From positions 84,308 to 148,307 of the forward strand of contig JBDRKI010000102.1 in the NCBI GenBank assembly GCA_043814095.1: a stretch of 64,000 bases of DNA. Reading direction: 5' to 3'. The notes beneath the pieces were generated by a model that searched no databases, was not told the origin of the DNA, and saw only the letters and a list, made by a program, of their open reading frames with translations. The position numbers and the translations under genes were made by a program. Below are positions 5,756 through 64,000 of this stretch, piece after piece. Positions within the stretch are counted from its first letter, which is position 1. Each line of letters begins with the position of its first letter. The DNA is from Armatimonadota bacterium. Its GTDB lineage: Bacteria > Vulcanimicrobiota > JACPDS01 > JBDRKI01.

Positions 5756-5788
5756 ATCCATTTATCTTATCTATTTACAGAATGTTTA

Positions 5789-7123
5789 TTATTTCGTTAT
5801 ATGCTCCTTATGGAGGCTTTTCAAAAAATCTGCATTGCTTTTGGTCTTGTTTAATTTTTCTGAAAATTTTTCGGTTACGTCGCCCGGATCAAAAAGGTCA
5901 AACGCGCGTCTTAAGAGCCATGTCTTTTTCAGATCGTCTTCCGGCAGAAGAAGTTCTTCATGCCTTGTTCCTGACCTTTTAATATCTATAGCAGGGTATA
6001 TTCTTCTCTCGGCAAGGCGCCTGTCAAGATCAAGCTCCATATTGCCGGTGCCTTTAAATTCTTCAAAGATAACGTCATCCATCTTACTGCCTGTTTCAAT
6101 TAAAGCTGTAGCAAGTATTGTAAGGCTCCCGCCTTCTTCAATATTTCTTGCAGAGCCGAAAAATCTTTTAGGCATTCTTAAGGCCGTTGTGTCCAGACCG
6201 CCCGATAAAGTCCTGCCGCTTGCGGGGGTTACGTTATTATACGCCCTGGCAAGCCTTGTAATGCTGTCTAAAAGTATGACAACATCATTGCCTTCTTCAA
6301 CAAGCCTTTTTGCTCTTTCTAAAAGAAGCTCGGATATCCTGGTATGCTGTTCCGGAGGTTCGTCAAAAGTTGAACTTACAACTTCACCCTTTATGGACCT
6401 TTCCATATCCGTTACTTCTTCGGGACGCTCGTCTATAAGAAGGGCCATTAAAACTACTTCCGGGAAATTGCTGGAGATACCGTTTGCTATCTTCTTAAGG
6501 AGAATGGTCTTGCCCGCTTTGGGAGGTGAGACTATAAGGCCTCTCTGGCCTTTGCCTATGGGGCATAGAAGATCTATTATCCTTGTTGATATCTCATTTC
6601 CCACTGTTTCCAGTTCGAACCTTTCATCGGGGAATATAGGGGTTAATTTTTCAAACATGGGCCTTGCTCTTGCAAGTTCAGGGTCTTTATCATTTACCGC
6701 AAGCACCCTTAATAAGCCGTAGTATTTCTCACCGTTTTTAGGAGGTCTTATCTGGCCTGCCACATAATCCCCTACCCTTAAATTAAATCTTTTTATCTGT
6801 GACTGGGATATGTAGATATCTGAACTGCCCGGCAGATAAGTTGAGCTTCTTAAAAACCCGTAGCCGTCAGGCAGTATTTCAAGTATTCCGGAAGAAAAAT
6901 TCAAGCCCTGTTTTATGGCTTGAGCCTCCATGATTTTGTAAATCAGGTCGGGTTTATCATACTTCTGGTAATTCTGTATGCCTGCTTCTTTGGCTTTGGC
7001 GTTAAGAGCCGTTTTGCCGAGTTTTTCAAAAACTCCGTAGTTTTCTACCACTGTTACGTTTTCTGTTCTTGTTTCCCGTTTTTCTTCTTTTTTGATTTCT
7101 TTTTTTGCTTCGTTCTCCGTCAT
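5789..7123 (-). CDS. rho: Transcription termination factor Rho
   Basis: [48 protein letters not shown]. Confidence 0.98.
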
Positions 7124-49821: not shown

Positions 49822-50901
49822 TTACAGTTTTGACACTACCTGATACATAGGCATAAAAACACTCATAACTATAAAGCCGACGACACAACCCATAAAAATA
49901 AGGAGGGCGGGTTCAAGAATGGCGAAAAATTTTTCAAGAATACTTTCAAATTCCTCTTCATAAAATTTAGTCATCTTCTGCAAAGTAAGCTTAAGTTCTC
50001 CTGTTTCTTCTCCTATTCTTATCATGGAAATCATTAATCTCGGGAATATCTGCAGACTCTCAAGCGAGTTAGATAAAAGCTCCCCGTCTTTCATATCATT
50101 AATTACAAGATCCATCGCATTAGCGTAATAGGAAATATTAAGCACATCTTTTATAAGTTCAAGGCTTTTTAATACAGGAAATCCCGTATCATGCAGAAGA
50201 GAGAATACTCTGCTAAACCTTATTATAACCATATACCTCATTGTGGGTCCTATAATAGGCAGTAATAATAAGGAATTCTGGGTAACCTCCCAGCCTCTTT
50301 TTGTCTTAACAAACCTGTAAAAAAGAATTGCCAGTATAATAATAACTGCAATTGTAACGGGGTTATTAAATATTCCTAAAGTCCCCATAAGAATTTTAGT
50401 GGATAAAGGCATCTCAACTCCTGCAGATTTAAGCATTGGAGTGAACGCCGGTATTATGAACTTTAATATAACAAGGATACAGAGAACAGAAGCAACAACC
50501 ATAAATATAGGGTAAGTGATAAGCGAATAAAAACGTTTTCTTAATTTATTCTCCTTTTCAAGGTCATCTGCTATTTTTTCTAATACATTCTCAAAAAACC
50601 CGCCCTCTTCACCGGCTCTTAACGTAGCGGTATAAATAGGGGGGAAAACTTCGGGATACTGCGCCATAGCAGAAGATAAAGCCATCCCTTCATCTGATAT
50701 ATTATAAACTATGTCCCTTAAAACCAACCTGAATTTATAATCGGGGCTCTGCTCCATAAGTATGGATAAACCGCTATGCAGCGAGACTCCTGATGATATC
50801 ATCGCCGAGAGCTGTTTGAAAAACACGGCTAAAGTATCATTTAAACTCTTTATACCCCTAACCTGTTTCTTTTTTTTCTTTTTTTCTTTTATATTATCCA
50901 T
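49822..50901 (-). CDS. PilC/GspF-family inner-membrane platform protein (cassette 1)
   Basis: FFKQLSAMISSG, AGEEGG, TYP, IGEETG, LEP...PMY two-repeat T2SSF pattern. Confidence 0.92.
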   Translation of the reverse strand: MDNIKEKKKKKKQVRGIKSLNDTLAVFFKQLSAMISSGVSLHSGLSILMEQSPDYKFRLVLRDIVYNISDEGMALSSAMAQYPEVFPPIYTATLRAGEEGGFFENVLEKIADDLEKENKLRKRFYSLITYPIFMVVASVLCILVILKFIIPAFTPMLKSAGVEMPLSTKILMGTLGIFNNPVTIAVIIILAILFYRFVKTKRGWEVTQNSLLLLPIIGPTMRYMVIIRFSRVFSLLHDTGFPVLKSLELIKDVLNISYYANAMDLVINDMKDGELLSNSLESLQIFPRLMISMIRIGEETGELKLTLQKMTKFYEEEFESILEKFFAILEPALLIFMGCVVGFIVMSVFMPMYQVVSKL

Positions 50902-50905
50902 ATTT

Positions 50906-51313
50906 TCATCTATCCGCCCCAGTCGCCAAAGCTGTAAGTTCTACCGTATGACCTAATTTACCACCCGGAGTAGAAACCCTCACAGTCACCTGTTTTAACC
51001 GCAAAGGTTCCATAACTTTCTTAATAATCTTACACTTATAATCCTTATAGGGTTCTTCAAGTATAAATTCATCTTCCTCAACCTCACCCTGCTCCTCATC
51101 CGGGTTTGAGAAAAGCCCGGAATATTCAAGAGTAGACTCTAGCACTGATTGAGCTATAAAAAGAGCCATGGTTGCATTCTCGGATTTTTGTTTGATTTGA
51201 GATCCGTACACAAATGAATCAAGTATTCCAACCATACAGACTATAAGAAGCATAGAAGAAATAAGCACTTCTATTAAAGTTAAACCACTTCTATTTCTTT
51301 TTTTCTTAATCAT
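50906..51313 (-). CDS. Minor pilin, PilV/GspI-like (cassette 1)
   Basis: Class III signal KKRNRSG|LTLIEVLIS with Glu+5. Confidence 0.85.
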   Translation of the reverse strand: MIKKKRNRSGLTLIEVLISSMLLIVCMVGILDSFVYGSQIKQKSENATMALFIAQSVLESTLEYSGLFSNPDEEQGEVEEDEFILEEPYKDYKCKIIKKVMEPLRLKQVTVRVSTPGGKLGHTVELTALATGADR

Positions 51314-51861
51314 TTTAAAGCCCTTGTAATCACCGTTGTCGCAAAATTATGTACTTTATCCCCAATCTTTACGGACATATAGACCGAGATAAGATCATAA
51401 CTTCTCTCGAGATCTCTAAATTCCAAAAAGACGACATCCCGTGCTATAGTTCTAACGCTTCCTTCGACTATCTGCGCCGAAGACGGATCATTGGGATTAA
51501 AATTCTTATACAGGTATCTCAATATGGTATTTCTGGAGGTATCAAGCTGGTAACAGACCGTATCTTTAGCATAAGAAGTAAAAACAATAAAAGGAGTTCC
51601 GAGGGAAAGGCTCGGTTCCCTGTCCGGATCAGTAAATGGATATTCCAGCTTCTCAGCATTGCAGACTATATCATTTGTTATTCTTTCGAAAGCCACGGAA
51701 CTTAACCGGAAATCGTTAACATTCTCCCCTCTCTCCCTGTAGAGGTTAAGCCCTTTTATATAAACGGCAATGACGGCGCTCATAACCATGGAGAAAACCG
51801 CCATGGTTACAAGAACCTCAGCTAACGTATATCCCGAATTTTTCTTTTTCCTCTTAATCAT
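51310..51861 (-). CDS. Minor pilin, PilW/GspJ-like (cassette 1)
   Basis: Class III signal KKKNSG|YTLAEVLVTM; AFERITNDI helix. Confidence 0.85.
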   Translation of the reverse strand: MIKRKKKNSGYTLAEVLVTMAVFSMVMSAVIAVYIKGLNLYRERGENVNDFRLSSVAFERITNDIVCNAEKLEYPFTDPDREPSLSLGTPFIVFTSYAKDTVCYQLDTSRNTILRYLYKNFNPNDPSSAQIVEGSVRTIARDVVFLEFRDLERSYDLISVYMSVKIGDKVHNFATTVITRALK

Positions 51862-52265
51862 TCTTCCGTCCAGCTTTCCAGATCCGAAGTCTTAGCTATA
51901 ATACTCTTTCTTATTATTTCACTGCCGTCTTTACTCTGCACAATACCCGTGGATCTTAAATACTCTGACTTTACCGCTTCGCCTTTTTCTATTATTTCTA
52001 ACTCTATTTTTCTTGTTTCATCAAGATGTAATACGCTGTTTTCAGATGTAAGCTCTTCCGGCTTAACCATGTCTATATAGTATTCTATGCCCGAACGGGC
52101 AAGAAGAAGCGCCTGCATTCTTGCTTCCTGTATACGGAAAAATTTAGCATCATACTGCACAGAAATGATATAACTTGCCGCCATAGCAAACAGAACGGAA
52201 AAAAGGACAAGAGTCACCGCAAGGGCAATTCCTTTATTTTTGGATTTATCCCTTTTTATCAACAC
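51858..52265 (-). CDS. Minor pilin, PilX/GspK-like (cassette 1)
   Basis: KNKG|IALAVTL lacking Glu+5; QALLLARSGIEY; STG. Confidence 0.8.
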   Translation of the reverse strand: MLIKRDKSKNKGIALAVTLVLFSVLFAMAASYIISVQYDAKFFRIQEARMQALLLARSGIEYYIDMVKPEELTSENSVLHLDETRKIELEIIEKGEAVKSEYLRSTGIVQSKDGSEIIRKSIIAKTSDLESWTEE

Positions 52266-52339
52266 AAATCAAATCCTATAATAATATATTATAAAACAAT
52301 TAACAAATTCAATTAAATAATAAAAATTCCTTTAAAATA

Positions 52340-52369
52340 TACAGGAACATACTTCTGTATGCTCCTGTA
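52340..52369 (-). terminator. Hairpin between TPR gene and pilin cassette 1
   Basis: TACAGGAACATAC-ttct-GTATGCTCCTGTA, followed by TATTTT on the minus strand. Confidence 0.6.
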
Positions 52370-52397
52370 ATTAAAAGATTATTTTATTAAAAGTTAT

Positions 52398-53087
52398 TTA
52401 TTTCAACTTAAGCAGTTTTAAAAATTTACCCGGCACATTATATCCAAACTTTTGCGCTGCTCTGCAGTTTTCCACTGCTTTTTTCCTGTTTCCGCTTTTA
52501 TAGTAAGCTACCGAAAGCTTATAATGTATCACTGCCTTGGTTTTGTTGCTCAACATATCCTCACCGTATTTAATGACATTTTCATACATTTTTGCGCAAT
52601 CGGAAAATTTATTTTGATCGTAATAAACGGATCCGAGCCCCGCATAAGCCGTAAGAACCGTTCCTTTGGGCCCGTTTCCTGCTTTTGAATTCATAATACC
52701 CCGGGACATACCAATAACTTTTTTATACGATATTTCGGCTTGCTTCAGGTTCCCCTGTTTATAATAAATTGTCCCGAGATTAAGATGGGCAGTGGGAAAT
52801 TTATCGTTAATTTTTAAAGTTTCTTTGTAGCATCTCTCCGCTTCTTTAAAATTACCCATCTTAAAATACGCGTGTCCCAGATAACCGTATGCAATGTCAT
52901 GTTTTTTATCTAATTTAACGGCTTTGCCGAATTCATCAGCGGCTTTCTGATATTCGCCTTGTTTAAATAACTTTAACCCTTTTTCATAATGCATATGGGC
53001 TTTAAATCCTGCATCCATATTGCTGTTTACTTTTTTATCCGCTTGTGACCAACCCAACTTATTTACGCTAGAGTAATCAAACTGCAT
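52398..53087 (-). CDS. Tetratricopeptide repeat protein
   Basis: Four to five TPR units (AYGYLGHAYFKMGNFKEA, AHLNLGTIYYKQGNLKQA); no signal peptide; 29 nt downstream of RHS1. Confidence 0.9.
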   Translation of the reverse strand: MQFDYSSVNKLGWSQADKKVNSNMDAGFKAHMHYEKGLKLFKQGEYQKAADEFGKAVKLDKKHDIAYGYLGHAYFKMGNFKEAERCYKETLKINDKFPTAHLNLGTIYYKQGNLKQAEISYKKVIGMSRGIMNSKAGNGPKGTVLTAYAGLGSVYYDQNKFSDCAKMYENVIKYGEDMLSNKTKAVIHYKLSVAYYKSGNRKKAVENCRAAQKFGYNVPGKFLKLLKLK

Positions 53088-53116
53088 ACACTACTCCTTT
53101 CTTATATATCATATTT

Positions 53117-56100
53117 TCAATTCGTCGAGTTTGCTAGATCCGCTCCGCCCTTACTGCAGCTTGATGAACTGTTAGGACTATTAGAGCCGGAACCACTGCC
53201 TGAATCTGAAGGAATCGTGATTTTGACTGCTTCTTTTACTACTTTTGCTCCGGTTGTTATAATCACACTGCCCTTGCCTCCCGTTGCTAAATCATAAACA
53301 ACGGAATCTGTATATCCCACTCCTTCACATCTTTCCAACTGAGCTCTATAATCAGGGTCTTGCTTAAAGTCAGTCTCTGATTGATATTCCGGATGTTCCC
53401 TGCTAATACGCTCTCTTGTTTGCCCCAATGATTCATTTCGGGTTCTTTTTCTTGCTTCATGTCTTTCCATTGCCGCTTGATACTCAGGCGTACCCGATGT
53501 TGGATAATGCTGTTTATAACCTTCCGGATCAACAAAATTAACAGGATCATTATCACAATATACATAAAGGTTTAATCCTGCGGCATACCCTATTTTATCG
53601 GGCTGAGTAAACCTTCCTATTTTGGGATCATAGTATCTTGACTGCAAATAATATAATTCTGACTCTTCGTCATAATAATATCCCGCATATCTTATGGGGC
53701 TTTCCACTTTATTTACAAAACCGGGCTCTTGAGACTGCCCACCGGGACCAGGTTCCTGGTCTCTATCACTATCCGGAGGATCAGGCAAAGGAGTTTGATT
53801 TCTCTCGCCACCCGGAGGATCAGGCAGAGGAGTTTGATTGTCATCCTGATGACCCGGACGATCAAGTGGATCTCTATCATCATCGTCATCCTGGGGTCCT
53901 AAATTATTAGTCTGAACAGCCGCTATAAATGCTCCCCTGCTCTGCAGCTGAGGTAATGGAGGAGCTCCTTTAGTATCTACCTGAGGTTGTACTGCAGGTG
54001 TATTCTGCTGGTTAGGCCGCTCTGTAGGAGAATGTCCCATAAAGAACTTCTTTATATTGTCAAATATTTTCTTTATAAATGATATAAGTTTATTTTCTTT
54101 ATTTCCTGATTCCTGTTGCGAATCATGGGGACCCTGCTGGGGCTGACCCTGTATTTCGCCGGGAGTTCCACTGACGGATGTAAGCGGATTGCCGAATTCA
54201 TCATACTCGTAAATTGCCGCTATTTCACCCTCTTTATCTGTTACGCCCACAACACTCCCTTGCAGATCTGTAATGTAGTAGTAATTTCCTTTGGGGTTGC
54301 TGAAACCATATCCGTAGTTTACGAATTCAATCTTGCCGTTTTCATCAATCTCCCCTTTTATACTACCGTTTAACCATAAAGTATAAATCTTCTCTTTGGT
54401 TTTTGAAGAATACTTTACGGTTCTAAGACCCGTTGCGCCGCTGTAGGTGTATTCCTCAAAACTTTCACTCCCCGGACCTTTAAATTCTATCTTCTTAACT
54501 TTATTTAACTTGTTATAGTAGAAATCTTTTTTTCTGCCTGAAGTATCGGCAGCCATAATATTACCGGCAGAATCATAATCATATCTAGTATTGCTTGTGG
54601 ATTTTAACTGATTGGCGTCATCATACTTATAATCAACCCTGCCTGATGGAGTCTGGGAAGAAATCCTGTTGCCGTTTCTGTCATATGCATAGGATGAAAC
54701 CGTCTTACCCGCCAGCTTTACTTCTTTTAGCTGGCCTACCTTGTCGTAAACATATTCAAAATCTTTTGCGTTTCTGTGGGAACCCCAAGATTTTTTCCTT
54801 TTTACCCTGTTCAATTTGTCGTATTCATACTCAACAAGGTAAAGAATCTCGCCTTTATCAGATAGATATTTCATGCGGCTTATATTCTTAAGACCGTTAT
54901 ATACAATGAAAAGTTTCATCCCGTTGGGATAATCAATTCTCGCGGGATCCTTGTTTTCATTATATACAAGTTTTAAATCTTTATCGCCTTTCTTTTTTAT
55001 TGCCGTAATTTTATTCGCTTTATCATACTCAATACTAAACTCATCTCCTGCAAAATTCTTCTGGTATATCAAATTGCCGGCATTGTCATAGCGCAGTTCT
55101 GTAGATTTATCCTTAAAAGGATATTCTTTCTTAATGAGCCTGCCCATTGCGTCATATTCGTATTCAGTGGAACCGGTCTCATCCCTTACTTTCATAAGAT
55201 TGCTGTTATCATCCCAATCATAATATATGGTATTATCCCCTGTTTTTCTTATAAGGCGGTTTAACTGGTCATAACGGTATTCCACGTTTAGAGGTGTTGA
55301 CGGTACGCGTCTTGCAAGCAGGTTGCCGGCTCCGTCATAACTGTAGTAAGTATAACGGTTTAATTGATCCCTTTTAGATATAACTTTATCCGCATGGTTA
55401 TATGGATACCCGAAATTTATATTGTTTTCTCTCGGGTCTCTTATATCTGTAAGTTTTTCATTATGATTATAGTTAAGACTTACCGGGAAAGTTTCAGCAT
55501 CCGTAACCCTCCTAAGCAGGTTAAATGCGTCATATGCCATTCTCACGGTATTATTTTCAGCATCAGTAACGGATGTAAGGTTGCAGTTTCCGTCATAAGT
55601 AAATTTTGTGGCATTACCTTCCGGATCTTTTATTTCTGTTAACAAATTAAAGTTATTGTATGTATAATCATACTTACGCCCGTTTATATTTATAAATACC
55701 GGCATGCCCATATCATTATATTTAGCATAAAGGAAGCCGCCTTCTTCATCCACCATACTTACAAGGTTGCCGCGGGAATCATAGTCGTATTTCCATACAT
55801 GGCCGTTGGGGTCCGTTAACCTGGTCATGTTGCTTTTATTATTGTAATCAAAGACCCATTTCTTACCGCATTTATCCACATAAGAAACAAGATTATTTTT
55901 CGAATCATAATAAAAACTGACATGCCCGCCCATAGCGTCATAATAATCCGTAGGGTAATTTCTATTGTTATAAACTATTCTTATCTCCGTATTATCCGGC
56001 CTTACAAACTTTATAATATTGCCGTCATTATCATAATAATACTTGGTAATACGCCCAAGAGGATCTTTTTTGCTTGTCATAAGCTGGGTTGCCGGATCAT

Positions 56101-57916
56101 AAGTAAACGCGTAGCTTACTCTCTGACCGTTCGGACCCGGCTCTTCAGTTCTTGTAATATTGCCCCTGTCATCATAATAAAATCTTACAATTCTCCCGCT
56201 TTCGTTTATCTCTGTCCACATTTCACCGCTTGCCGGTACCGGCAGCGATTTATATGTTACTATATTTCCAGGATTAAAATCCTGCGCCGGCTGGATCCAG
56301 CTGTATTTATATTTAATATAACCGCCGTTTGCAAGGCGCTGTTCCCTTACAATCTGGCAGTCCGGAGGATGGCCTGCCATATAATCATTATACACCTGTG
56401 AGCCGTTAGGATATTCTATGGTAGAGTATTTTCCTCCATCAAATTTAAAAACGGTATAGTTGCCTTCAACATCCTTAACTTTACTTAAGAAAAGGCCGTC
56501 TCTCCATGTATATTCAACCGTTCTCCCAGTCCAGTCCTGTATCTTTGATACAAGACCATTGTCATCATGATAAACATTTATCTTTCTCCCGTAAGGATCG
56601 GTTATAATCATATCGTGGCACAGATTCCTGTTAACCCCCATAATAGATGCAATTTCTATGGGCATATCAGAAATAAATTTTCTAATATCCTTTACGAGCA
56701 TTTTCCATGTATATGTTGTTACCCTGCCCTGCGGGTCTATTTCTTTTATAAGAAATCCAAGCGTATTAAAGACTTTTTTGCTTTGATCGGGAAAAATAAC
56801 TATATAATTCTTTAAGTCATAATATACTTTTAAGAAATTCCAAGGCTGAGCCGGACTATATGTCCTTCTGTTATCGCCCGGTTTTTTTACAAATCTGTAC
56901 TCACAAAAACGAAAATCCCTGTAATAAATGGAGCCGTCTACCGAGTCAAACCTTAAGCATTCGTCAAAATTAAACATCCAGCCAAAACTGCCTCCCCCCG
57001 GCTGGTATCCCATGCCGCTGTTATAATACCTTCTTATCTCATAACCGGAAGGAAATGACATATCTACATATTCTTCCACCAAAGCGCCGGTGGCTATGCT
57101 TACAGGACAACCTCCGTTATTATCGCCGCCGCCGGAGCCCTTGCCGCCGCCTGCGGTCGTACCCATACATGCATCGCCTTTTATCCGGCCTTCACTATTA
57201 TTTGTTCTTATACTGTAGCCACCTCTGGATGAAAGTTTTAAGTCTTTTATCTCATGTGATTTTGCTATTCTTGTCCTTTCATCCGGGTCCGTGAAAGCCT
57301 GCAGATCAAATTTCATTATGTTATCAGGGGTCGTTGGAAACCATATTTCGTAATACATCCTGTAACGCCCCGTGCCTATCTTATCTTTAAACTTTGAAGG
57401 TTCATAAAATCCGTACATCCATATGCCGCCTTCCGCGACTTCAACTTTTTTAGTACCTTCAATTTTTATTAAAACTTCATTATTATCGTTACGGAACTCA
57501 ACTTTATAATTAATTACCTTGGGAAGGTATACAAAAGTGTCTTTTCCCCTTACAAAATACGGCCATAAACGCAGTGAATAATATGCATGTCCGCCCTGAT
57601 ACATGGGAGATGAAGGAGTAGGCCCGTAAGAAGCTAATGAGCTGAATCTTTGTCCATAACCCATTATATCTACGGTAACAATGTCAAAAACACTGGAGTT
57701 AACTATTGAGGGAAAACCTTTATAATCAAGATTTTCATCTTGATTATAATGACTGCTTATATCTATTACCCCTTCAGGCACCTCATCAATATTAAGATAG
57801 GGATTAATAGAATCATCCGTTTGTGAATTAACTACATTTGTAAAAATTAAAAATAAAAGCAAAGGTAAAATTACCAGTGCCCATAAAATTCCCGGATATC
57901 GTTTTTTAATTTTCAT
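53117..57916 (-). CDS. RHS/YD-repeat protein RHS1 with Sec signal, DUF6531-like domain and RHS core
   Basis: N-terminal signal helix; PVSIATG...RYYNS...FGW; many YD..GN repeats; core RYAGYYYD.ESELYY..SRYYDP.IGRF...NLYVYCDNDPVNFVDPEG. Confidence 0.95.
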   Translation of the reverse strand: MKIKKRYPGILWALVILPLLLFLIFTNVVNSQTDDSINPYLNIDEVPEGVIDISSHYNQDENLDYKGFPSIVNSSVFDIVTVDIMGYGQRFSSLASYGPTPSSPMYQGGHAYYSLRLWPYFVRGKDTFVYLPKVINYKVEFRNDNNEVLIKIEGTKKVEVAEGGIWMYGFYEPSKFKDKIGTGRYRMYYEIWFPTTPDNIMKFDLQAFTDPDERTRIAKSHEIKDLKLSSRGGYSIRTNNSEGRIKGDACMGTTAGGGKGSGGGDNNGGCPVSIATGALVEEYVDMSFPSGYEIRRYYNSGMGYQPGGGSFGWMFNFDECLRFDSVDGSIYYRDFRFCEYRFVKKPGDNRRTYSPAQPWNFLKVYYDLKNYIVIFPDQSKKVFNTLGFLIKEIDPQGRVTTYTWKMLVKDIRKFISDMPIEIASIMGVNRNLCHDMIITDPYGRKINVYHDDNGLVSKIQDWTGRTVEYTWRDGLFLSKVKDVEGNYTVFKFDGGKYSTIEYPNGSQVYNDYMAGHPPDCQIVREQRLANGGYIKYKYSWIQPAQDFNPGNIVTYKSLPVPASGEMWTEINESGRIVRFYYDDRGNITRTEEPGPNGQRVSYAFTYDPATQLMTSKKDPLGRITKYYYDNDGNIIKFVRPDNTEIRIVYNNRNYPTDYYDAMGGHVSFYYDSKNNLVSYVDKCGKKWVFDYNNKSNMTRLTDPNGHVWKYDYDSRGNLVSMVDEEGGFLYAKYNDMGMPVFININGRKYDYTYNNFNLLTEIKDPEGNATKFTYDGNCNLTSVTDAENNTVRMAYDAFNLLRRVTDAETFPVSLNYNHNEKLTDIRDPRENNINFGYPYNHADKVISKRDQLNRYTYYSYDGAGNLLARRVPSTPLNVEYRYDQLNRLIRKTGDNTIYYDWDDNSNLMKVRDETGSTEYEYDAMGRLIKKEYPFKDKSTELRYDNAGNLIYQKNFAGDEFSIEYDKANKITAIKKKGDKDLKLVYNENKDPARIDYPNGMKLFIVYNGLKNISRMKYLSDKGEILYLVEYEYDKLNRVKRKKSWGSHRNAKDFEYVYDKVGQLKEVKLAGKTVSSYAYDRNGNRISSQTPSGRVDYKYDDANQLKSTSNTRYDYDSAGNIMAADTSGRKKDFYYNKLNKVKKIEFKGPGSESFEEYTYSGATGLRTVKYSSKTKEKIYTLWLNGSIKGEIDENGKIEFVNYGYGFSNPKGNYYYITDLQGSVVGVTDKEGEIAAIYEYDEFGNPLTSVSGTPGEIQGQPQQGPHDSQQESGNKENKLISFIKKIFDNIKKFFMGHSPTERPNQQNTPAVQPQVDTKGAPPLPQLQSRGAFIAAVQTNNLGPQDDDDDRDPLDRPGHQDDNQTPLPDPPGGERNQTPLPDPPDSDRDQEPGPGGQSQEPGFVNKVESPIRYAGYYYDEESELYYLQSRYYDPKIGRFTQPDKIGYAAGLNLYVYCDNDPVNFVDPEGYKQHYPTSGTPEYQAAMERHEARKRTRNESLGQTRERISREHPEYQSETDFKQDPDYRAQLERCEGVGYTDSVVYDLATGGKGSVIITTGAKVVKEAVKITIPSDSGSGSGSNSPNSSSSCSKGGADLANSTN
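53773..53839 (-). repeat. Direct repeat (28 nt, 39-nt period) encoding NQTPLPDPP twice
   Basis: CCGGAGGATCAGGCA(A/G)AGGAGTTTGATT at 53773 and 53812. Confidence 0.85.
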
Positions 57917-58034
57917 AAAATCCCTCTGGGAGTGATTTTATATTTATATTCTACTCCTATTTCAAAAAAACCTTGAAAAGCAAGTTTTTTATATTATCCC
58001 CTAACTTCATTATAATATTTAATGTAAAGATTAT

Positions 58035-58057
58035 ATATAGGTCTAAAGGAGTATTTT
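58035..58057 (-). promoter_or_regulatory. Conserved 23-bp motif upstream of RHS1
   Basis: Minus strand AAAATACTCCtttaGACCTATAT; 21/23 identical to 60841-60863 upstream of RHS2. Confidence 0.6.
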
Positions 58058-58143
58058 AAAGGATAAAAAAAACGGTGTTTTTTTTTGCCGTTTTTAATGC
58101 TTTTTTACTTGAAATTCCAAAAGATCCGAATATTTTCCTTATC

Positions 58144-58177
58144 CAAGACTGTTTTTAAAAAATGAAAAACAGTCTTG
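58144..58177. promoter_or_regulatory. 13-bp inverted repeat in the divergent intergenic region
   Basis: CAAGACTGTTTTT-aaaaaatg-AAAAACAGTCTTG. Confidence 0.45.
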
Positions 58178-58283
58178 TGCGACTCCTTATCCTTTCTCCT
58201 GTTTGTTTTTGTTAAAAGAGGTATTTTATGCGAAAATAAAGAAATATAATATTTAATATCAGATTTACTGCAATCATAAAATT

Positions 58284-58700
58284 ATGGGATGCACTATAAA
58301 AAACAAAACAAAAAATCACGCCGGAACGCAGTCAAAGCCAAAGGGATTTGCTCTGGCTCTGACTCTTGTTATATTTGCGATTCTATTACTGCTTTCTTCA
58401 ACCTACATTACGCTTGTCATTTCTGATATCAGATTTTCTAATATCAGGAACTTACAAACTCAGGCGATTTTCCTGGCGCGGTCAGGAATAGAATATTACC
58501 GTTATATGAATATGCCGGAAAGCGGCGTGCCGGAAACTTCTGTGGACAATAACGCGTTTTCTGTGGAAGTCGTATCCATAAACGGTGAAAAATTTGTTAA
58601 ATCAACGGGAATAGTAAATAACCTTGCTGGCGGGGAAATCGCGAAAGAAAGCATAATTGCCCCTATGGGCGATTTGAAAAAATGGCGAAGGACTTATTAG
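58284..58700 (+). CDS. Minor pilin, PilX/GspK-like (cassette 2)
   Basis: KPKG|FALALTL lacking Glu+5; QAIFLARSGIEYY; paralog of 51858-52265. Confidence 0.8.
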   Translation: MGCTIKNKTKNHAGTQSKPKGFALALTLVIFAILLLLSSTYITLVISDIRFSNIRNLQTQAIFLARSGIEYYRYMNMPESGVPETSVDNNAFSVEVVSINGEKFVKSTGIVNNLAGGEIAKESIIAPMGDLKKWRRTY

Positions 58701-58718
58701 AAAAAACGGAGCGCTTGT

Positions 58719-59276
58719 TTGCATAATATTTTGAAATCAAAAAAAAGAAAACAGGGATATACCCTGGTTGAAGTGCTTGTTACGATGGCTATTTTTTCAT
58801 TAGTTGTCTTCGCGGTAACGGATGTATATGTTAAGGGAATAAAGCATAACAAAAGATTATCAAATAAGATATCAAGTTTCAGAGGGCCCGCTGTGGCTTT
58901 GGATAGGATATCACGTGAAATTATGTGTGACGCTGACATGATATTATACCCTCTTTACGACGATCTGCTTTCAGGATCAGACTCAATTGTTTTTTCCACG
59001 CTGGAGAAAGAGCCAAAAATAATAGGATATATATATGACGCGGACTCTTTAACCATAAAAAGAATTGTATACTCCTGCGCCATAGCAGATTTTGACCCTT
59101 ACGATTTAGAGACAAACCTGCAGTTTGTGCAGCCGGACGGGGTTAGAATTTTTGCCGGCGGAATAAAAAATATAAATTACCGGCTGACATCGGACCTTCT
59201 TTTGCAAATCTCGCTGACCGCGCAGGGAGATGACAGGGATTATTTGTTTTCAACCGCTGTTTGTTTCGGAAAATAG
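58719..59276 (+). CDS. Minor pilin, PilW/GspJ-like (cassette 2)
   Basis: KKRKQG|YTLVEVLVTM; ALDRISREI; paralog of 51310-51861. Confidence 0.85.
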   Translation: MHNILKSKKRKQGYTLVEVLVTMAIFSLVVFAVTDVYVKGIKHNKRLSNKISSFRGPAVALDRISREIMCDADMILYPLYDDLLSGSDSIVFSTLEKEPKIIGYIYDADSLTIKRIVYSCAIADFDPYDLETNLQFVQPDGVRIFAGGIKNINYRLTSDLLLQISLTAQGDDRDYLFSTAVCFGK

Positions 59277-59321
59277 AGTTTCCCTAATGTATAAATAGCA
59301 AAACTTATTTGGTGGTTTTTT

Positions 59322-59705
59322 ATGAATAATGTGAAAAGAAAAAAGAAAGGACTTACGCTTGTAGAGGTCATTATATCGGTATCTATTCTTTTTATTTGCA
59401 TGGTTGGGATTATGGATGCTTTTGTTCTGGGGTCCGTTTATCAAAAAAGTTCCGAAGAAGTTACAACCGCTTCTTTTTTGGGCCAGCAAGTATTGGAGTC
59501 ATTATTATCATATACTGCTTCCGAGTCATTAGAAATCTCGGCAGAATCATTCCCCGAACCTTACGAGAAATATAACTATACCGCTAAGATGGCTCCTTTT
59601 GAAGATTTAGAAGGCTTTGTAAAAATAACTGTCCATGTTTCTACCCCTAAAGGCTCCAAATTGCGCAGGGTCGTGAAGCTCTCGGCATTAAAATTAATTG
59701 AGTGA
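59322..59705 (+). CDS. Minor pilin, PilV/GspI-like (cassette 2)
   Basis: KRKKKG|LTLVEVIIS; paralog of 50906-51313 (CMVGI.D.FV.GS, VSTP.G). Confidence 0.85.
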   Translation: MNNVKRKKKGLTLVEVIISVSILFICMVGIMDAFVLGSVYQKSSEEVTTASFLGQQVLESLLSYTASESLEISAESFPEPYEKYNYTAKMAPFEDLEGFVKITVHVSTPKGSKLRRVVKLSALKLIE

Positions 59706-59714
59706 TGAATCAAC

Positions 59715-60785
59715 ATGTTTAAAAAAACGATTAAAATAAAAGAATTGTTGATGCGGAAAAATACCGATGAATTTCTTATGATATTTTTCCGGCAGCTTTC
59801 GGAAATGACAATGGCGGGCATACCTCTTTATAGAGCGCTTGAAATTATGGGCATGCAGTTTGAAAATACCGTATTTAGCAAGACTCTTGAGGGGATAAAA
59901 TATAATATTTACGTAAAAGGCCTTCCCCTTTACAGGTCGCTCTCAATGTTTCCGGATGTTTTTTCAGCGTTATGCATTGGCACCGTAAAAGCAGGCGAAG
60001 AGGGCGGTTTTCTGCCGCAGGTTTTAAGAAAACTGGCCAAAGAAACAGAAAAAGAGAACAACCTAAAAAAACGTTTTTATTCAATAATGACATACCCCGT
60101 AATCCTTATTGTAGCTTCAATAGTATTAATATTGGTAACCCTTAAATTTATTCTGCCGTCTTTTGCCCCTCTTCTAAAGTCATTTGATGTAGATACCCCT
60201 GTTTCTACGAAAATTTTAAATTATACCGTGATGCTGTTTAATAATCCGCTGACAATATTTGTTTTGATTTTGCTGGTTATACTGTTAAATTTATTTATTA
60301 AGACAAAAAAGGGCAGTATTATTTTTGAGAATATTCTTCTTGAACTCCCGATAATAGGCAGCATAATAAGATATACGGCCATAGTACGGTTTAGCCGTAT
60401 GTATGCTCTTCTGGCCTCTACCGGATATCCGTTAATAGATGGGCTCCAACTTATAAGCGAATCTATTGGCTGCAATTTGTATAAAGAAGCCCTCATAAAA
60501 GCAATGGAAGAAGTAAAAGACGGTGAGTTTTTATCAAAAGCCCTTTTTAATCAAAGAGTGTTTCCTTCCATAGTTATTTCCATGATAACCGTAGGCGAAG
60601 AATCAGGGAACATGCAAATCCCCCTGGAAAGACTTGCGCATCTTTATGAAGTTGAAATAGAGACTACAATGGAAAGGTTTTTTACTTTGCTTGAGCCGGT
60701 ACTTCTGGTTTCCATAGGCCTTGTGATCGGGTTCATGATGATGAGCGTTTTTCTGCCGGTATCTAAAATAATGACCGCAATATAA
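59715..60785 (+). CDS. PilC/GspF-family platform protein (cassette 2)
   Basis: FFRQLSEM..AG, AGEEGGF, TYP, VGEESG, LLEP; paralog of 49822-50901. Confidence 0.92.
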   Translation: MFKKTIKIKELLMRKNTDEFLMIFFRQLSEMTMAGIPLYRALEIMGMQFENTVFSKTLEGIKYNIYVKGLPLYRSLSMFPDVFSALCIGTVKAGEEGGFLPQVLRKLAKETEKENNLKKRFYSIMTYPVILIVASIVLILVTLKFILPSFAPLLKSFDVDTPVSTKILNYTVMLFNNPLTIFVLILLVILLNLFIKTKKGSIIFENILLELPIIGSIIRYTAIVRFSRMYALLASTGYPLIDGLQLISESIGCNLYKEALIKAMEEVKDGEFLSKALFNQRVFPSIVISMITVGEESGNMQIPLERLAHLYEVEIETTMERFFTLLEPVLLVSIGLVIGFMMMSVFLPVSKIMTAI

Positions 60786-60840
60786 GGTTTTAAAGACAAT
60801 CCCTTCTAAAAATACTCCTTTTGGTCCCATTTTTAGTCAA

Positions 60841-60863
60841 AAAATACTCCATTTGACCTATAT
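60841..60863 (+). promoter_or_regulatory. Conserved 23-bp motif upstream of RHS2, with a partial second copy at 60809
   Basis: AAAATACTCCatttGACCTATAT; AAAATACTCC repeated 32 nt upstream. Confidence 0.6.
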
Positions 60864-60952
60864 CCGTATATACACAGGCAGGGCTATAATATAGATAGAG
60901 AAGAAAAGTAACGCTTAAAATTAAAGATTTTATGCCCTAATGGAGGAAGGAT

Positions 60953-63900
60953 ATGAGGTATAAAAGATTTTTAACTCTAACATTTATATTTTGTGCCGTT
61001 ATTTTAATTGCGCTGTTTTTCAGTGCTATGCATGGTAAATCTAATCTTTTTGCCGCACAAGGTACATATATTATAGGTGTAAATGGTGTAAATAATATTA
61101 CCCTGCTTGATAGTGATTTTCCTGATACCTCTGCAGATCTTTCATTTGTAAAGCCTGATTCAAGCAATACATATTCCGTAAATATATCTGGAAAAGAGCA
61201 GACATTTGTAATTAACGGGTATTACGGCCCCAACCCGTGCAGCCCTGTAAGTGAAGGCGGAAACGCGTATTATGCCATAAGCATATGCAACGAGGGTTCC
61301 ATATACGATACCTTCCTATATGTTCCCCAGAATATAGAGTATAAAATTGAATTTTACGGTCTCAGTAATAATGTTTTAGAAACAGTTGAAGGCACGAGCA
61401 TAGCTGAATATAAGATAATTACAACCGGTTCTACTAAAAAAATCGTCGGCTGGATATACGGCTTCCTTAAACCCGAAGGAATTAAAAGCAAGATAGGCAT
61501 GCAGCCTATTGGTATGTCGTATAGTATAAAGTTTGCAAAAAACGATCCCGCTCAGATTATAAAAAATGAAAGCCCCGGGAATATGACATCCGGGAAATTT
61601 TCTTCTTCAACGCAAATACAACCCATCGGTTTAAGCCCGATAGGCGGCGGACTTAGCATACTGAGATACCCGGTAGATATTGTAAGCGGCAGTTTAATAG
61701 AATACAGTGTTGATATGGCTCTGCCCGGAGATCTTGCAGTAACAAGATATTATAACAGCGGCATGGCCTACCAGCCGGGAAAAGCTTCCGGATGGATGTT
61801 TAATTTTGAGGAATTTTTGCGCTTTGATCCCGACGGCTCTGTTTTTTACAGGGATAATACTTTCAGAGAATACAGGTTTGTCCTTGACCCCAATAATCCC
61901 GGCAGATATCTGCCGTCAAAATCCGGTAATTTTTTACAGCTGACCAAGTACCGTAACGGCAATCATGTGGTCAGATTTAAAGATCAGTCAAGTAAGGTTT
62001 TTAATTCCCTCGGGCTTTTAATAGAAAGCATAGACCCTCAGGGAAACAGAACTTCATATGAGTGGGAGTTGCCCGTAAGCCAGATTAGGGCAAATTATGA
62101 TATGCCTGCAAAACTTATGGCGGTTATGGGGCTTCCGGATAGTTTCAGAGCCAACCAGACTTTAACAATAAAGAATCCTTACGGCAGGACGGTTTATGTG
62201 GATTTTAACCGTTTCGGCAGGGTTGCAAAGGTAACTGACTGGTCGGGAAGAACAGTCGAATACACCTGGGATGATGAGCAGGGTATTTGCTTATTGAAAT
62301 ATAGAGATACCGCCGGCAATTATACAACTTTTTCATATAGAAGAAATATATTATCAAGTATAAATTATCCCAACGGCACACCGGTCAAAAACAATTATTA
62401 TGCTAAACCGTTTCAAACATTGGGAGAGAGGAAGTTTGCAACAGGCGATTATATAAGCTACCGTTACGGCTGGATGAGGTCTGCGGGGTATAGGTATACA
62501 GAGGTAAAAATTAACGGCAAGTACAGAACATATTATTACGATGAAAACGGCACAATTACTAAAATAGACTACTACGGGCCCAGCAACATGATGGCGACTT
62601 ATAAATTTAGCAGCGATCAGGAGAAAAACCTGGTAACTTCAATTACAGATCCGAAATACGGTGTTAGTACATATTCCTATGATGACAGAGGGAATATTAC
62701 TGAAATTAAGCTTCCGAACGGCAGAAGTGCTAAATATAAGTATAATGATAATAATATGCTGACCGACTACTGGGATACTGCGGGAAAGCACACTGCCTAC
62801 GGATATGACGTTAAAAACAATGTAATTTCCATTAAAAGACCGGACGATACGAAAGTTTTCTTTGAATATGACTCAAGAGGCAAGCTCATAAAATCAATTG
62901 ATGCAAAGGGATACTCAACAATTTATGCATACGGCGCCTATGGAGATCTTGCAAGTATAACGGATGCAGAAGGCCGTCTTGCAAGATTTTACCGCGATAC
63001 TCTCGGCAGAGTAGTGCAGATGGATGTAAACGGTATAAAAAGATATATACAGTATGATAATTTAGGGAATATAACCCAATTTACCGATGCCTTAAAGAAC
63101 ACTGCAAAATTTTATTATGACGGTAACGGAAATTTAACTTCTGCTGTCAACGCTAAAAATGAGACAATAACTTTTGAATATGATGTGCTTGACCAGCTTA
63201 TAAGGAAAACAGATCCTCAAAATAATGCCGTAGCTTACCGTTATGATGTAAGCGGTAACATGGTAAATATTATAGACCCTATGGGCGGCAATATAGGTTT
63301 TGAGTACAATAATGCCAATTATCTTTCCGGCATAAGAGATCAAAAATATGACAAAACATATTACAGTTACGATAGTAACAGCAATTTAATTTCGATAAGC
63401 AACCCTGCTGCTTCTAAGAGTACAGAATTTAAATTTGACAACCTTAACCGGGTTATACAAAAAAAGGGCACCTATACCTATAATTATGAATATGACAATG
63501 CCGGAAATCTTAAGGAAATAAGAAGCGATTCAGGAAAAACACTTTATGAATACGACTCAATGAACCGTCTTACCCAAAAAAAATATCCGTCCGGTAAAGA
63601 GTTTTCGCGCAGGTTTGATGCTAACGGAAACGTTATATATGAAAAACATATTAACGGCGACGAGTTTGATTATCAGTATGATAAATCCGGCAACCTTGTA
63701 TCAGCGCGTAAAAGTGGAAGAGACGCTTTTACCTGTAAATATAACCAGAACAGGCAGCTTACTTTTATTGAATATCCCAACAAGGTTGCGCAATATATTT
63801 CATATAATGGAAACGGAGATATTGCGCACATGAAATACATATCCGCGGCAGGGGAGATTCTTTACACCGTTGAGTATGCATATAACGAGCTGGGGCAGGT

Positions 63901-64000
63901 TGTCAATAAACATTATTCCGGCGTAGGGCGCCCGGAAAAAGATATTTCCTACCATTACGATAAATCCGGCCGCCTTATACAGACAAAATCAGGCGACAGA
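60953..64000 (+). CDS. RHS/YD-repeat protein RHS2 (at least 1016 aa, runs off the window; not in ORF track)
   Basis: GGAGG RBS, ATG 60953; MRYKRFLTLTFIFCAVILIALFFSA signal; YPVDIVSG..RYYNSGMAYQPG..GWMFNF; same frame at the window end reads YHYDKSGRLIQTKSGDR; paralog of RHS1. Confidence 0.93.
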   Translation, partial: MRYKRFLTLTFIFCAVILIALFFSAMHGKSNLFAAQGTYIIGVNGVNNITLLDSDFPDTSADLSFVKPDSSNTYSVNISGKEQTFVINGYYGPNPCSPVSEGGNAYYAISICNEGSIYDTFLYVPQNIEYKIEFYGLSNNVLETVEGTSIAEYKIITTGSTKKIVGWIYGFLKPEGIKSKIGMQPIGMSYSIKFAKNDPAQIIKNESPGNMTSGKFSSSTQIQPIGLSPIGGGLSILRYPVDIVSGSLIEYSVDMALPGDLAVTRYYNSGMAYQPGKASGWMFNFEEFLRFDPDGSVFYRDNTFREYRFVLDPNNPGRYLPSKSGNFLQLTKYRNGNHVVRFKDQSSKVFNSLGLLIESIDPQGNRTSYEWELPVSQIRANYDMPAKLMAVMGLPDSFRANQTLTIKNPYGRTVYVDFNRFGRVAKVTDWSGRTVEYTWDDEQGICLLKYRDTAGNYTTFSYRRNILSSINYPNGTPVKNNYYAKPFQTLGERKFATGDYISYRYGWMRSAGYRYTEVKINGKYRTYYYDENGTITKIDYYGPSNMMATYKFSSDQEKNLVTSITDPKYGVSTYSYDDRGNITEIKLPNGRSAKYKYNDNNMLTDYWDTAGKHTAYGYDVKNNVISIKRPDDTKVFFEYDSRGKLIKSIDAKGYSTIYAYGAYGDLASITDAEGRLARFYRDTLGRVVQMDVNGIKRYIQYDNLGNITQFTDALKNTAKFYYDGNGNLTSAVNAKNETITFEYDVLDQLIRKTDPQNNAVAYRYDVSGNMVNIIDPMGGNIGFEYNNANYLSGIRDQKYDKTYYSYDSNSNLISISNPAASKSTEFKFDNLNRVIQKKGTYTYNYEYDNAGNLKEIRSDSGKTLYEYDSMNRLTQKKYPSGKEFSRRFDANGNVIYEKHINGDEFDYQYDKSGNLVSARKSGRDAFTCKYNQNRQLTFIEYPNKVAQYISYNGNGDIAHMKYISAAGEILYTVEYAYNELGQVVNKHYSGVGRPEKDISYHYDKSGRLIQTKSGDR

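Follow-up and report, generated by a model that had tools for sequence, protein, structure and literature searches.

Two RHS genes beside paralogous minor-pilin cassettes

The window, that is the whole 64,000-nucleotide stretch of contig JBDRKI010000102.1 analysed here, closes at a contig end, where the following genes and features are found:

49822..50901, minus strand: pilC1, PilC/GspF platform protein, 359 aa (T2SSF x2, E 5e-49)
50906..51313, minus strand: pilV1, PilV/GspI-like minor pilin without C-terminal propeller, 135 aa (N_methyl)
51310..51861, minus strand: pilW1, PilW/GspJ-like minor pilin, 183 aa (N_methyl)
51858..52265, minus strand: pilX1, short PilX/GspK-like minor pilin without Glu5, 135 aa (from sequence)
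52340..52369, minus strand: terminator-like hairpin of 13 bp between TPR gene and cassette 1 (-23.3 kcal/mol, z -7.6)
52398..53087, minus strand: TPR protein without hydrophobic leader, 229 aa, 29 bp behind RHS1 (Pfam TPR)
53117..57916, minus strand: RHS1, 1599 aa (DUF6531, YD repeats, RHS core)
53197..53713, minus strand: 517-nt tract 92% identical between RHS1 and RHS2 (blastn and blastp of RHS1 against contig C18)
57917..58283, no strand: AT-rich divergent region of 367 bp between RHS1 and cassette 2 (from sequence)
58284..58700, plus strand: pilX2, short PilX/GspK-like minor pilin, 138 aa (PilX_N, weak, E 0.044)
58719..59276, plus strand: pilW2, 185 aa from a TTG start (N_methyl)
59322..59705, plus strand: pilV2 without C-terminal propeller, 127 aa (N_methyl)
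59715..60785, plus strand: pilC2, platform protein of cassette 2, 356 aa (T2SSF x2, E 2e-43)
60953..64000, plus strand: RHS2, first 1016 aa (RHS_repeat, DUF6531); the remainder lies on contig C18 (locus L001)

A sequence-only reading of this DNA had described two paralogous pilX-pilW-pilV-pilC modules, each with an RHS gene. This was borne out for all 11 open reading frames in content and position. The modules do not mirror each other, as gene order differs between them. RHS1 lies upstream of cassette 1, with the TPR gene and the hairpin in between, and is divergent from cassette 2; RHS2 starts 167 bp downstream of pilC2. The partner of RHS1 may be either cassette 1 or cassette 2. RHS2 runs on into contig C18 (141-nt exact overlap), and the reading frame that follows it is convergent.

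Identity between the modules amounts to 42% for pilX, 35% for pilW, 43% for pilV, 44% for pilC and 38% for RHS, and each gene is the best match of its counterpart in the whole genome. The two pilC genes are sisters in the PilC tree (support 100), as are the two cassettes in the cassette tree (support 99); the modules represent one duplication and are therefore counted as one event. It had been proposed that each RHS is loaded on, or pushed out by, its own pilus tip complex, and the retention of all five genes (RHS and cassette), similarly diverged (35-44%) and still together despite the rearranged order, counts in favour of RHS as cargo.

The hairpin, likewise noted earlier, stood up to shuffling, with equal stability in 0/200 shuffles; promoter-like matches in the divergent region were no commoner than in shuffles (59 vs 50.6 +/- 8.0). 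This strong hairpin between RHS1-TPR and cassette 1 and the gap between pilC2 and RHS2 leave co-transcription putative and count against RHS as cargo.

The pilin trio has the composition of a priming complex (PilVWX, GspIJK), with two class III prepilins carrying Glu5 and one without it. Among NCBIfam models, pilX1 matches GspK (E 1.6e-5) and pilV1 matches both PilV and GspI, all below cut-off.

RHS proteins and their variable tips

RHS1 comprises a predicted signal peptide, a family-specific N-terminal domain of ~230 aa, DUF6531, YD repeats and an RHS core with the motif PxxxxDPxG, followed by a tip of 135 aa. RHS2 has ~1575 aa in total, with its core on L001, and both proteins form a full shell with YD repeats, DUF6531, RHS core and the PxxxxDPxG cleavage motif. 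The Sec-type signals ascribed to both proteins hold as predictions, based on hydrophobic leaders (KD 3.2-3.3) and a V-L-x-A-Q consensus common to five RHS homologues. As had been claimed, neither protein carries a PAAR, VgrG, WXG or TcB family (Pfam, none at E<=0.1), and no PilY1 family was found in RHS1 or RHS2 with Pfam; a genome-wide PF05567 profile search was blank, but its positive control was likewise silent. Export by a T6SS was ruled against by the absence of PAAR and VgrG families together with the absence of a VipB sheath match in the 99% complete genome, for which the E. coli control was positive.

The 92%-identical tract covers the RHS core together with ~110 aa at the start of the tip, and its sequence is likely the result of recent gene conversion. 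RHS1 has three further homologues (P0002, P0005, P0006), and the tips of RHS1, RHS2, P0002 and P0006 differ after the core, which is the variable-tip arrangement of polymorphic toxins. WapA belongs among the "T2SS/Sec-dependent" RHS polymorphic toxins. The window proteins share with this class a signal peptide, RHS repeats, a variable tip and lineage-specific N-terminal domains, and differ from it in having tips without known toxin domains; the examined part of the survey gives no signature neighbour genes for the class and lacks the words "pilin" and "pilus" (PMC3482391). Neither window tip had a Pfam match. The C-terminal ~110 aa of RHS2 are common to the end of P0006 (33% identity, E 5e-15) and possibly fibronectin-III-like, a hint taken from Atlas feature matches (0.82-0.83) that serves as a lead only. 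The TPR protein is a candidate immunity protein or chaperone, and Tgl and pilotin-type TPR models scored far below cut-off against it.

Pilins and export machinery elsewhere in the genome

The window had been described as free of ATPase, secretin and major pilin genes, and all three were located elsewhere in the genome. Five PilB/GspE-like and seven PilT-like ATPases and three full secretins count in favour of RHS as cargo, with prepilin peptidase and major pilins also encoded in trans. A complete T2SS on contig C5 counts against it, as RHS export without a cassette becomes conceivable.

The 2.5-Mb genome holds 63 pilin/pilC genes and 8 pilC-bearing cassettes. Both of its RHS genes (2/2) have a pilin or pilC gene within 1 kb, compared to a background of 50/2087 genes and 2/45 large signal-peptide proteins, which counts in favour of RHS as cargo; chance adjacency of RHS and cassette is 2-9% for this genome alone, which counts against it together with the single duplication. 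In only three pilC cassettes of the genome does PilV lack a C-terminal extension, and both window cassettes are among them (127-144 aa vs 253-561 aa in the extended ones).

RHS genes and cassettes in related genomes

The sequence-only reading was to be given up if such cassettes recurred beside unrelated genes, here and in relatives, with no RHS enrichment. They do recur: 6/8 cassettes of this type in this genome and 39/40 short-pilX loci from relatives (in the DNA fetched) are without RHS, and both counts speak against RHS as cargo. The gene-neighbourhood comparison did, however, reveal RHS enrichment, even though most cassettes lie beside no RHS. In relatives, 8/13 informative signal-peptide RHS genes adjoin pilin/pilC genes, compared with 0/15 RHS genes without a signal peptide (Fisher p 4e-4, overstated by kinship), and these eight belong to three RHS families besides that of the window.

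Further observations point in both directions. Signal-peptide RHS genes without a nearby cassette (5/13) include close paralogues of linked ones (L050, L052, L128), which counts against RHS as cargo, as does the presence of 40-75 pilC genes in some relatives (~75 in one), where chance adjacency is therefore estimated at 5-8% per gene. The N-terminal domain of the window RHS occurs in 0/400 other genomes of the phylum, and in other linked systems neither the N-termini nor the accessory proteins are homologous to it; both results again count against. In favour, genome G061 repeats the doubling seen in the window, with a pilC fragment in divergent orientation beside each of two RHS genes. These fragments are sister to the PilC of the L064 cassette (support 95), and a PD40-PilV tail is present on two contig ends of G061.

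Cassettes in which PilV has 360-408 aa and a C-terminal PD40 beta-propeller form a single clade (support 96) and adjoin RHS in 5/6 genome loci; at later loci, found by pilin alone, RHS sequence follows in 4/4 informative cases (L136, L146, L147, L149). A functional link between RHS and cassettes in the phylum is thus supported, by the enrichment at signal-peptide RHS genes and by the one cassette clade that almost always adjoins RHS. The window PilV proteins (127 and 135 aa) have no PD40 propeller, which leaves them outside the definition of this type, and the window cassettes fall outside the PD40 clade in the best tree; forcing them into it costs 21.9 log-likelihood units, a placement that the AU test does not reject (p 0.09). 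The strongest comparative evidence therefore concerns a different cassette, a point against RHS as cargo, and the RHS link of the window cassettes looks convergent.

Linked RHS proteins of relatives have variable enzyme-like tips (weak enzyme matches in 3/6, one over cut-off), small downstream genes and orphan modules. Since these tips resemble polymorphic antibacterial toxins and small genes follow them, contact-dependent competition is the likely job of RHS there. For the window proteins, whose tips have no recognised toxin domain and of which RHS2 ends in a conserved beta domain, killing is no more likely than surface display or adhesion.

RHS as putative cargo of a pilus tip

Weighing this evidence, we lean slightly towards the view that each RHS would have a tip cassette of a type IV filament dedicated to it and would travel as its cognate cargo, loaded by tip complex and platform and pushed through the secretin by shared motors. 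RHS, which by prediction reaches the periplasm through Sec, would there be bound by the PilX-PilW-PilV priming complex built on the cassette's own PilC, would leave through the shared secretin, powered by shared motors, and might then be released or retained at the pilus tip. Signal cleavage, tip assembly, docking, secretin passage and purpose are steps that we infer. The dimensions are compatible with such passage, as an Rhs cocoon measures 86 x 65 Å (PMC8765631) and the TCP secretin ring ~80-90 Å (PMC9565799, in the part examined). More tentatively, and with somewhat more doubt than belief, we suggest that Vulcanimicrobiota may have evolved, at least twice, plug-in cassettes made up of a tip-pilin trio and, in many cases, a PilC of their own, each loading one specific RHS, with shared motors and secretins delivering the tip-loaded RHS to a neighbouring cell.

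It is unlikely, in our judgement, that the locus is instead a co-regulated contact or competition island without docking, in which the cassette would form an adhesive pilus for cell contact and RHS would exit by some other path, such as the general T2SS. Shared regulation and transfer as a block could keep such genes clustered, the genome encodes an entire T2SS, RHS and cassettes are set apart by a terminator and gaps, no common RHS N-terminal docking domain was found, and signal-peptide RHS are classed as T2SS/Sec-dependent (PMC3482391, in the part examined). Orientation also varies among relatives (divergent in L049, L059 and L060; co-oriented in L064, L069, L126, L127 and L136), and L136 and L149 adjoin integrase genes, L136 also resolvases. 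However, it is a single rare cassette clade that tracks RHS across three families, whereas pilin cassettes as a whole do not, every copy retains its own platform, and the RHS reading frame begins at the end of pilV (L126 and L127).

A chance neighbourhood, in which RHS came to lie next to one cassette among many before duplication of the block, with the PD40 link of relatives being real but separate, seems highly improbable to us. The abundance of pilin genes and cassettes in this genome, the 2-9% background and the position of the window cassettes outside the PD40 clade would fit; yet both copies kept five intact genes over ~60% divergence and rearrangement, and they are two of only three short-PilV pilC cassettes, as would be predicted for a tip cargo encoded by its own gene. 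Least probable of all is a periplasmic regulator or scaffold that would stay in the periplasm and modulate pilus extrusion or retraction, as modelled for Bdellovibrio Bd0109, which has a signal peptide and YD repeats and is co-transcribed with Tad genes (PMC3818213, in the part examined): the lack of a known toxin domain in the window tips would suit this role, but both window RHS are full shells with RHS core and PxxxxDPxG, and the linked RHS of relatives speak against it with their variable tips of enzyme-like character, their orphan modules and the small genes downstream.

Comparison with known systems

The window shows, by prediction, a Sec signal on a putative cargo encoded beside pilin genes, the arrangement of pilus-dependent secretion of the TcpF/CofJ type. 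In V. cholerae TcpB-TcpF and ETEC CofB-CofJ, a tip minor pilin binds a cognate exoprotein (PMC10120004, PMC9565799, both in part), and a Sec-exported protein encoded beside pilus genes is proposed to be carried by it through the secretin. The window differs in its T4aP/T2SS-type PilX/W/V with their own PilC, in having no motor in the locus and in a cargo that would be a ~175 kDa RHS capsule; binding was shown there, and we infer it here from the genes. PilY1/PilC on PilHIJK (PilVWX) is likewise a large Sec-exported protein that is no pilin and whose gene adjoins those of the priming pilins (PMC10191384, in part), although the window RHS, proposed in the sequence-only reading to fill the PilY1 slot, have no PilY1 domain.

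The Bdellovibrio precedent proved closer than first noted, with 3/5 RHS genes near pilus genes: bd0109 belongs to the Tad locus, bd1292 has pilA and the platform gene pilG nearby, and bd3309 lies near pilQ (PMC3818213, in the part examined). In both cases signal-peptide YD-repeat genes adjoin genes of a type IV pilus, one for the platform among them, whereas the same part describes no cassette of a minor-pilin trio with a private platform and models Bd0109 as a periplasmic regulator and not as cargo. The Myxococcus Kil system has four interchangeable minor-pilin Tips, paralogous three-pilin sets that share one machine, and effector delivery by the tip has been proposed (PMC12075869, in part). 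It is a Tad pilus (T4cP), not T4aP-like, and in the part examined no platform copy per cassette is described and "Rhs" occurs 0 times.

For the outer-membrane crossing of signal-peptide RHS in diderms, the main survey assigns a default Sec route without signature neighbours, as far as its examined part goes (PMC3482391). A specific, testable answer, with likely docking partners named, comes from a rare pilin cassette that follows RHS from family to family. It also offers a reason for private PilC copies (12 here, ~75 in one relative), with a bearing on cargo selection by type IV filament machines. If RHS is indeed tip cargo, RHS delivery would gain the type IV pilus as a further route besides T6SS, Tc and plain Sec export, and the extreme multiplication of pilC in the phylum would be explained in part as a library of cargo-specific launchers, movable on mobile elements.

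We know of no RHS link for the Verru_Chthon pilin cassettes (TIGR02599 and related models), which are multi-copy and resemble the present ones in the lineage-wide expansion of minor-pilin cassettes. The pilW1 product matches TIGR02599 weakly (E 2e-4, 20.8 vs a cut-off of 256.5 bits).

Two paralogous RHS–pilin modules

The pairing of RHS genes with minor-pilin/PilC cassettes is real and probably functional, although the window itself supports it less well than its relatives do. As to its mechanism, we rate loading of the RHS as cargo on a dedicated pilus tip as the most likely, with confidence slightly better than even. In the window, the pairing involves the following features:

53117–57916, minus strand: RHS1
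52398–53087, minus strand: TPR gene
minus strand: cassette 1, pilX1-pilW1-pilV1-pilC1
plus strand: cassette 2, pilX2-pilW2-pilV2-pilC2
60953–64000, plus strand: RHS2, continuing on contig C18 of the same genome

All eleven ORFs placed by the sequence-only reading were recovered at their positions in a sequence check. The two modules are paralogous, as it had proposed, each gene finding its best match in the genome in its partner in the other module (35–44% identity); a mirror-image duplication was ruled out because the gene orders differ. Domain searches matched T2SSF twice in both pilC1 and pilC2, and RHS_repeat and DUF6531 in both RHS genes, in which none of the PAAR, VgrG, WXG or TcB families was matched, in line with the original description. 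The N-methylation motif is carried by pilV1, pilV2, pilW1 and pilW2, and Glu5 is absent from pilX1 and pilX2. Contig C102 ends where the window ends, and RHS2 extends onto C18 via an exact overlap of 141 nt, giving a total of ~1575 aa. A 517-nt tract that covers the core together with ~110 aa at the start of the tip is 92% identical between RHS1 and RHS2, whereas identity elsewhere is 38%, which points to recent gene conversion; a collapsed-repeat artefact was ruled out, since identity is 92% and not 100%.

RHS2 lies 167 bp downstream of pilC2. RHS1 and the TPR gene lie upstream of cassette 1, separated from it by the strong hairpin that had been noted, and cassette 2 runs away from RHS1 on the opposite strand, so that either cassette may be its partner. 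Both window PilV proteins belong to the three shortest encoded by pilC cassettes of the genome (127–144 aa vs 253–561 aa), which would fit a separate gene taking over the role that the PilV extension has elsewhere. Also in the window, FtsH (43548–46019, minus strand) contains an intein-like insertion (PF14890, residues 268–442) within its AAA domain.

Pilus machinery in the source genome

The source genome is 99% complete and isolated, its order holding one other genome. The window has no ATPase, secretin or major pilin, as was remarked at the outset; such parts sit elsewhere in the genome, which encodes five PilB/GspE-like and seven PilT-like ATPases, three full secretins and one weak match and, as read from sequence, major-pilin-like genes and a prepilin peptidase. 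The missing parts therefore exist in trans. Eight of its 12 PilC/GspF genes belong to pilX-pilW(-pilV)-pilC cassettes; of the others, one is part of a full T2SS (contig C5), one lies beside pilB/pilT (C69) and two stand alone. This T2SS favors an alternative that we regard as possible but doubtful, namely that the modules form a co-regulated island whose RHS proteins are exported by the T2SS. No T6SS sheath was matched in the genome, and a PilY1 search gave no match, its positive control being equally silent. A giant ORF of 5513 aa on contig C32 (39835–56376, minus strand) runs to the contig end.

Cassettes without RHS and the role of chance

Cassettes common beside unrelated genes, together with a lack of RHS enrichment, had been named as evidence that would count against the link. 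The former is found, as six of the eight cassettes of the source genome have no adjoining RHS; the latter is not, RHS enrichment being seen in relatives. Short PilX homologues occur in 96/401 genomes of the phylum. Among 40 short-PilX loci, hand-picked from 150 listed of 600 matches, the first profile found no RHS (0/40), and one locus (L126) was later shown to contain an RHS start. Platform genes have undergone extreme expansion in some genomes: G061 has at least 149 T2SSF domain hits (about 75 genes), G047 at least 82 (about 41 genes) and G075 at least 81 (about 40 genes).

In the source genome, 50/2087 genes have a pilin or pilC gene no further than 1 kb away; for large signal-peptide proteins (n = 45), the counts are two within 1 kb and four within 2.5 kb. 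Since the two window modules represent one duplication, this genome alone leaves a 2–9% probability of a chance event, and we consider chance adjacency in the source genome unlikely.

RHS genes adjoining cassettes in related genomes

Seen from the RHS side, the link was analyzed in 68 hand-picked genomes with short-PilX hits outside families f12, f17 and f20. DUF6531 gave 19 hits and the RHS core 166 (150 listed). We fetched 40 RHS loci, plus three from an N-terminal domain profile search, and left out 15 of the 40 (13 truncated or orphan pieces, one with only 850 bp upstream and one with an uncertain start). RHS genes with a hydrophobic leader adjoin pilin or pilC genes in 8/13 cases (L049, L059, L060, L061, L064, L069, L126, L127) and have no such neighbor in 5/13 (L050, L052, L067, L068, L128), whereas none of 15 leaderless RHS genes, many of which sit amid tail-fibre-like genes, does so (Fisher p 4e-4, overstated because kin are not independent). 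L069 was counted as leader-bearing although a poly-C run puts its signal peptide out of frame (5770–6117), through slippage or sequencing error; the close relative L147 is intact. The eight cassette-linked RHS genes represent three RHS families other than that of the window. In G053, an RHS of the same family as linked ones is preceded by 18 kb free of any cassette.

In L049 (8579–11448), L050 and L052, the RHS follows genes for three secreted accessory proteins (235 aa, 472 aa with FlgD-Ig domains, 216 aa). The RHS behind them has almost no N-terminal domain, and the accessory proteins are possible adaptors in trans. An RHS of ~2200 aa without signal, amid tail-fibre-like genes, is found in L056 (3889–12210), L054, L055, L062, L063 and L066, directly 3' of a radical SAM gene and a Gly-rich, Cys-containing small ORF; this arrangement looks like a separate conserved system.

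Cassettes with a PD40-bearing PilV

Most RHS-linked cassettes have in common a PilV with a C-terminal PD40 beta-propeller, and RHS adjoins five of six PD40-PilV loci. In the sixth (L112), the downstream DNA up to the contig end is 79% identical to DNA that precedes an RHS operon elsewhere in that genome, on a different contig. A profile of the six pilins found no additional full-length copy in the 68 genomes, indicating that the type is rare. Scanning a genome collection with a PD40 pilin returned 10 loci: the six known, three partial and one new full-length locus (L136), with the order pilX-pilW-pilV-RHS (2011 aa)-small gene, flanked by an integrase on one side and resolvases on the other. 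The record that holds it is assigned to Acidobacteriota; its presence there may reflect either transfer or mis-binning.

A metagenome scan gave 14 loci, of which we inspected L143–L147 and L149 in detail; the other eight comprise seven weak matches and L150, which nearly matches L149. RHS sequence lies directly 3' of the pilin or overlaps it in L146, L147 and L149; L143–L145 stop short of any informative downstream sequence. The pilins of L146 and L149 are cut short where they meet the RHS, which may reflect a deletion or an assembly join. In L146 (593–2520) the truncated pilin passes into an RHS frame starting mid-shell, by deletion, frameshifted pilin–RHS fusion or assembly join. G061 carries two RHS genes; next to each, in divergent orientation, lies a pilC fragment that is sister to the PilC of L064. 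Two contig ends of G061 have a PD40-PilV tail. Some PD40 cassettes have a sugar transferase gene (PF02397) between pilX and pilW (L064, 6716–7249; L145, 290–1063), hinting at glycosylation of tip or cargo.

In Tc toxins and teneurins, YD shells are coupled to beta-propellers. We speculate that the PD40 propeller might be a docking pad in trans, an idea ruled out for the window, whose PilV proteins are short.

Phylogeny of the cassettes

A tree built from the concatenated PilX, PilW and PilV of 47 cassettes, with which the PilC tree agrees, unites PD40 cassettes from families f3, f4 and f19 in a single group (support 96, or 93 once eight rows were dropped). The window pair stays together (support 99), weakly grouped with other cassettes of its own genome, and constraining it with the PD40 cassettes is not rejected (AU p 0.09). 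Shared ancestry with the PD40 cassettes was set aside as an established fact. In the best tree the pair lies outside the PD40 group, and its RHS link is thus probably convergent, which would be notable, if real, but lets the strongest support from relatives bear on the window only indirectly.

The RHS proteins as candidate cargo

Five members of the window's RHS family are known, sharing a conserved N-terminal domain of ~230 aa. This domain was not found in the 400 other genomes searched and shows no homology to the N-termini of other linked RHS proteins. Profile comparisons of RHS N-termini and accessory proteins of linked systems gave nothing significant (best E 0.055). For the RHS1 N-terminal region, single-sequence AlphaFold2 reached pLDDT 28.5 and an Atlas feature search gave no usable hit. 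The repeated RHS N-terminal domain of relatives models as a beta-sandwich (pLDDT 73.8) with generic Ig-like structural matches only (best Z 7.5, none at 8). The sole pairing run, PilX1, PilW1 and PilV1 with RHS1 36–250, gave no interpretable score (0.00 in two complex predictions, with controls not folded).

Neither window tip matched Pfam; the RHS2 end domain is common to the homologue P0006 (33% identity), with weak fibronectin-III-like leads. No co-oriented gene follows RHS2. A 451-aa ORF (L001, 290–1645, plus strand), without Pfam or NCBIfam match, converges on its end and encodes a hydrophobic segment followed by a basic helical region. Tips of linked RHS in relatives vary (one matches a nucleotidyltransferase over cut-off, lysozyme-like and CHAT matches are weak, and three match nothing), and small genes 3' and orphan modules accompany them; by their sequences, these proteins look like typical polymorphic toxins. 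Scanning metagenomes with an alignment of the window's RHS family produced 556 pattern matches, none of which was confirmed. Among listed sequencing runs, no RNA run containing the organism was found, and one DNA run (0.06 share) yielded scattered short contigs only.

Proposed mechanism and comparison with known systems

For loading on a dedicated tip, the model is TcpB–TcpF, in which, in the available text, the cargo attaches through its N-terminal signal to a tip pilin, which takes it through the secretin (PMC10120004; PMC9565799). Likewise, the RHS would be bound by dedicated tip pilins and borne through a secretin. The HIJK complex of the T2SS is reported, in the accessible part of the source, to touch secreted effectors (PMC10191384), and a Rhs cocoon of 86 x 65 Å, as given in the accessible text (PMC8765631), would fit a secretin ring of ~80–90 Å.

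The Bdellovibrio precedent named in the sequence-only reading holds, in that the available text places RHS genes near pilus genes, as here (PMC3818213); that the window's RHS is a Bd0109-like periplasmic regulator is very improbable. We found no description of RHS with a minor-pilin/PilC cassette in searches of the openly accessible literature, and the available text of a polymorphic-toxin survey gives Sec-dependent RHS no signature neighbors (PMC3482391). We read the pairing as a variant of pilus-dependent cargo export with RHS as the putative cargo. The Myxococcus Kil pilus, as described in the accessible text, similarly has interchangeable tip cassettes, with effector delivery proposed, but no RHS (PMC12075869). 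For one family of the host's phylum, the accessible text suggests a predatory lifestyle (PMC9259500).
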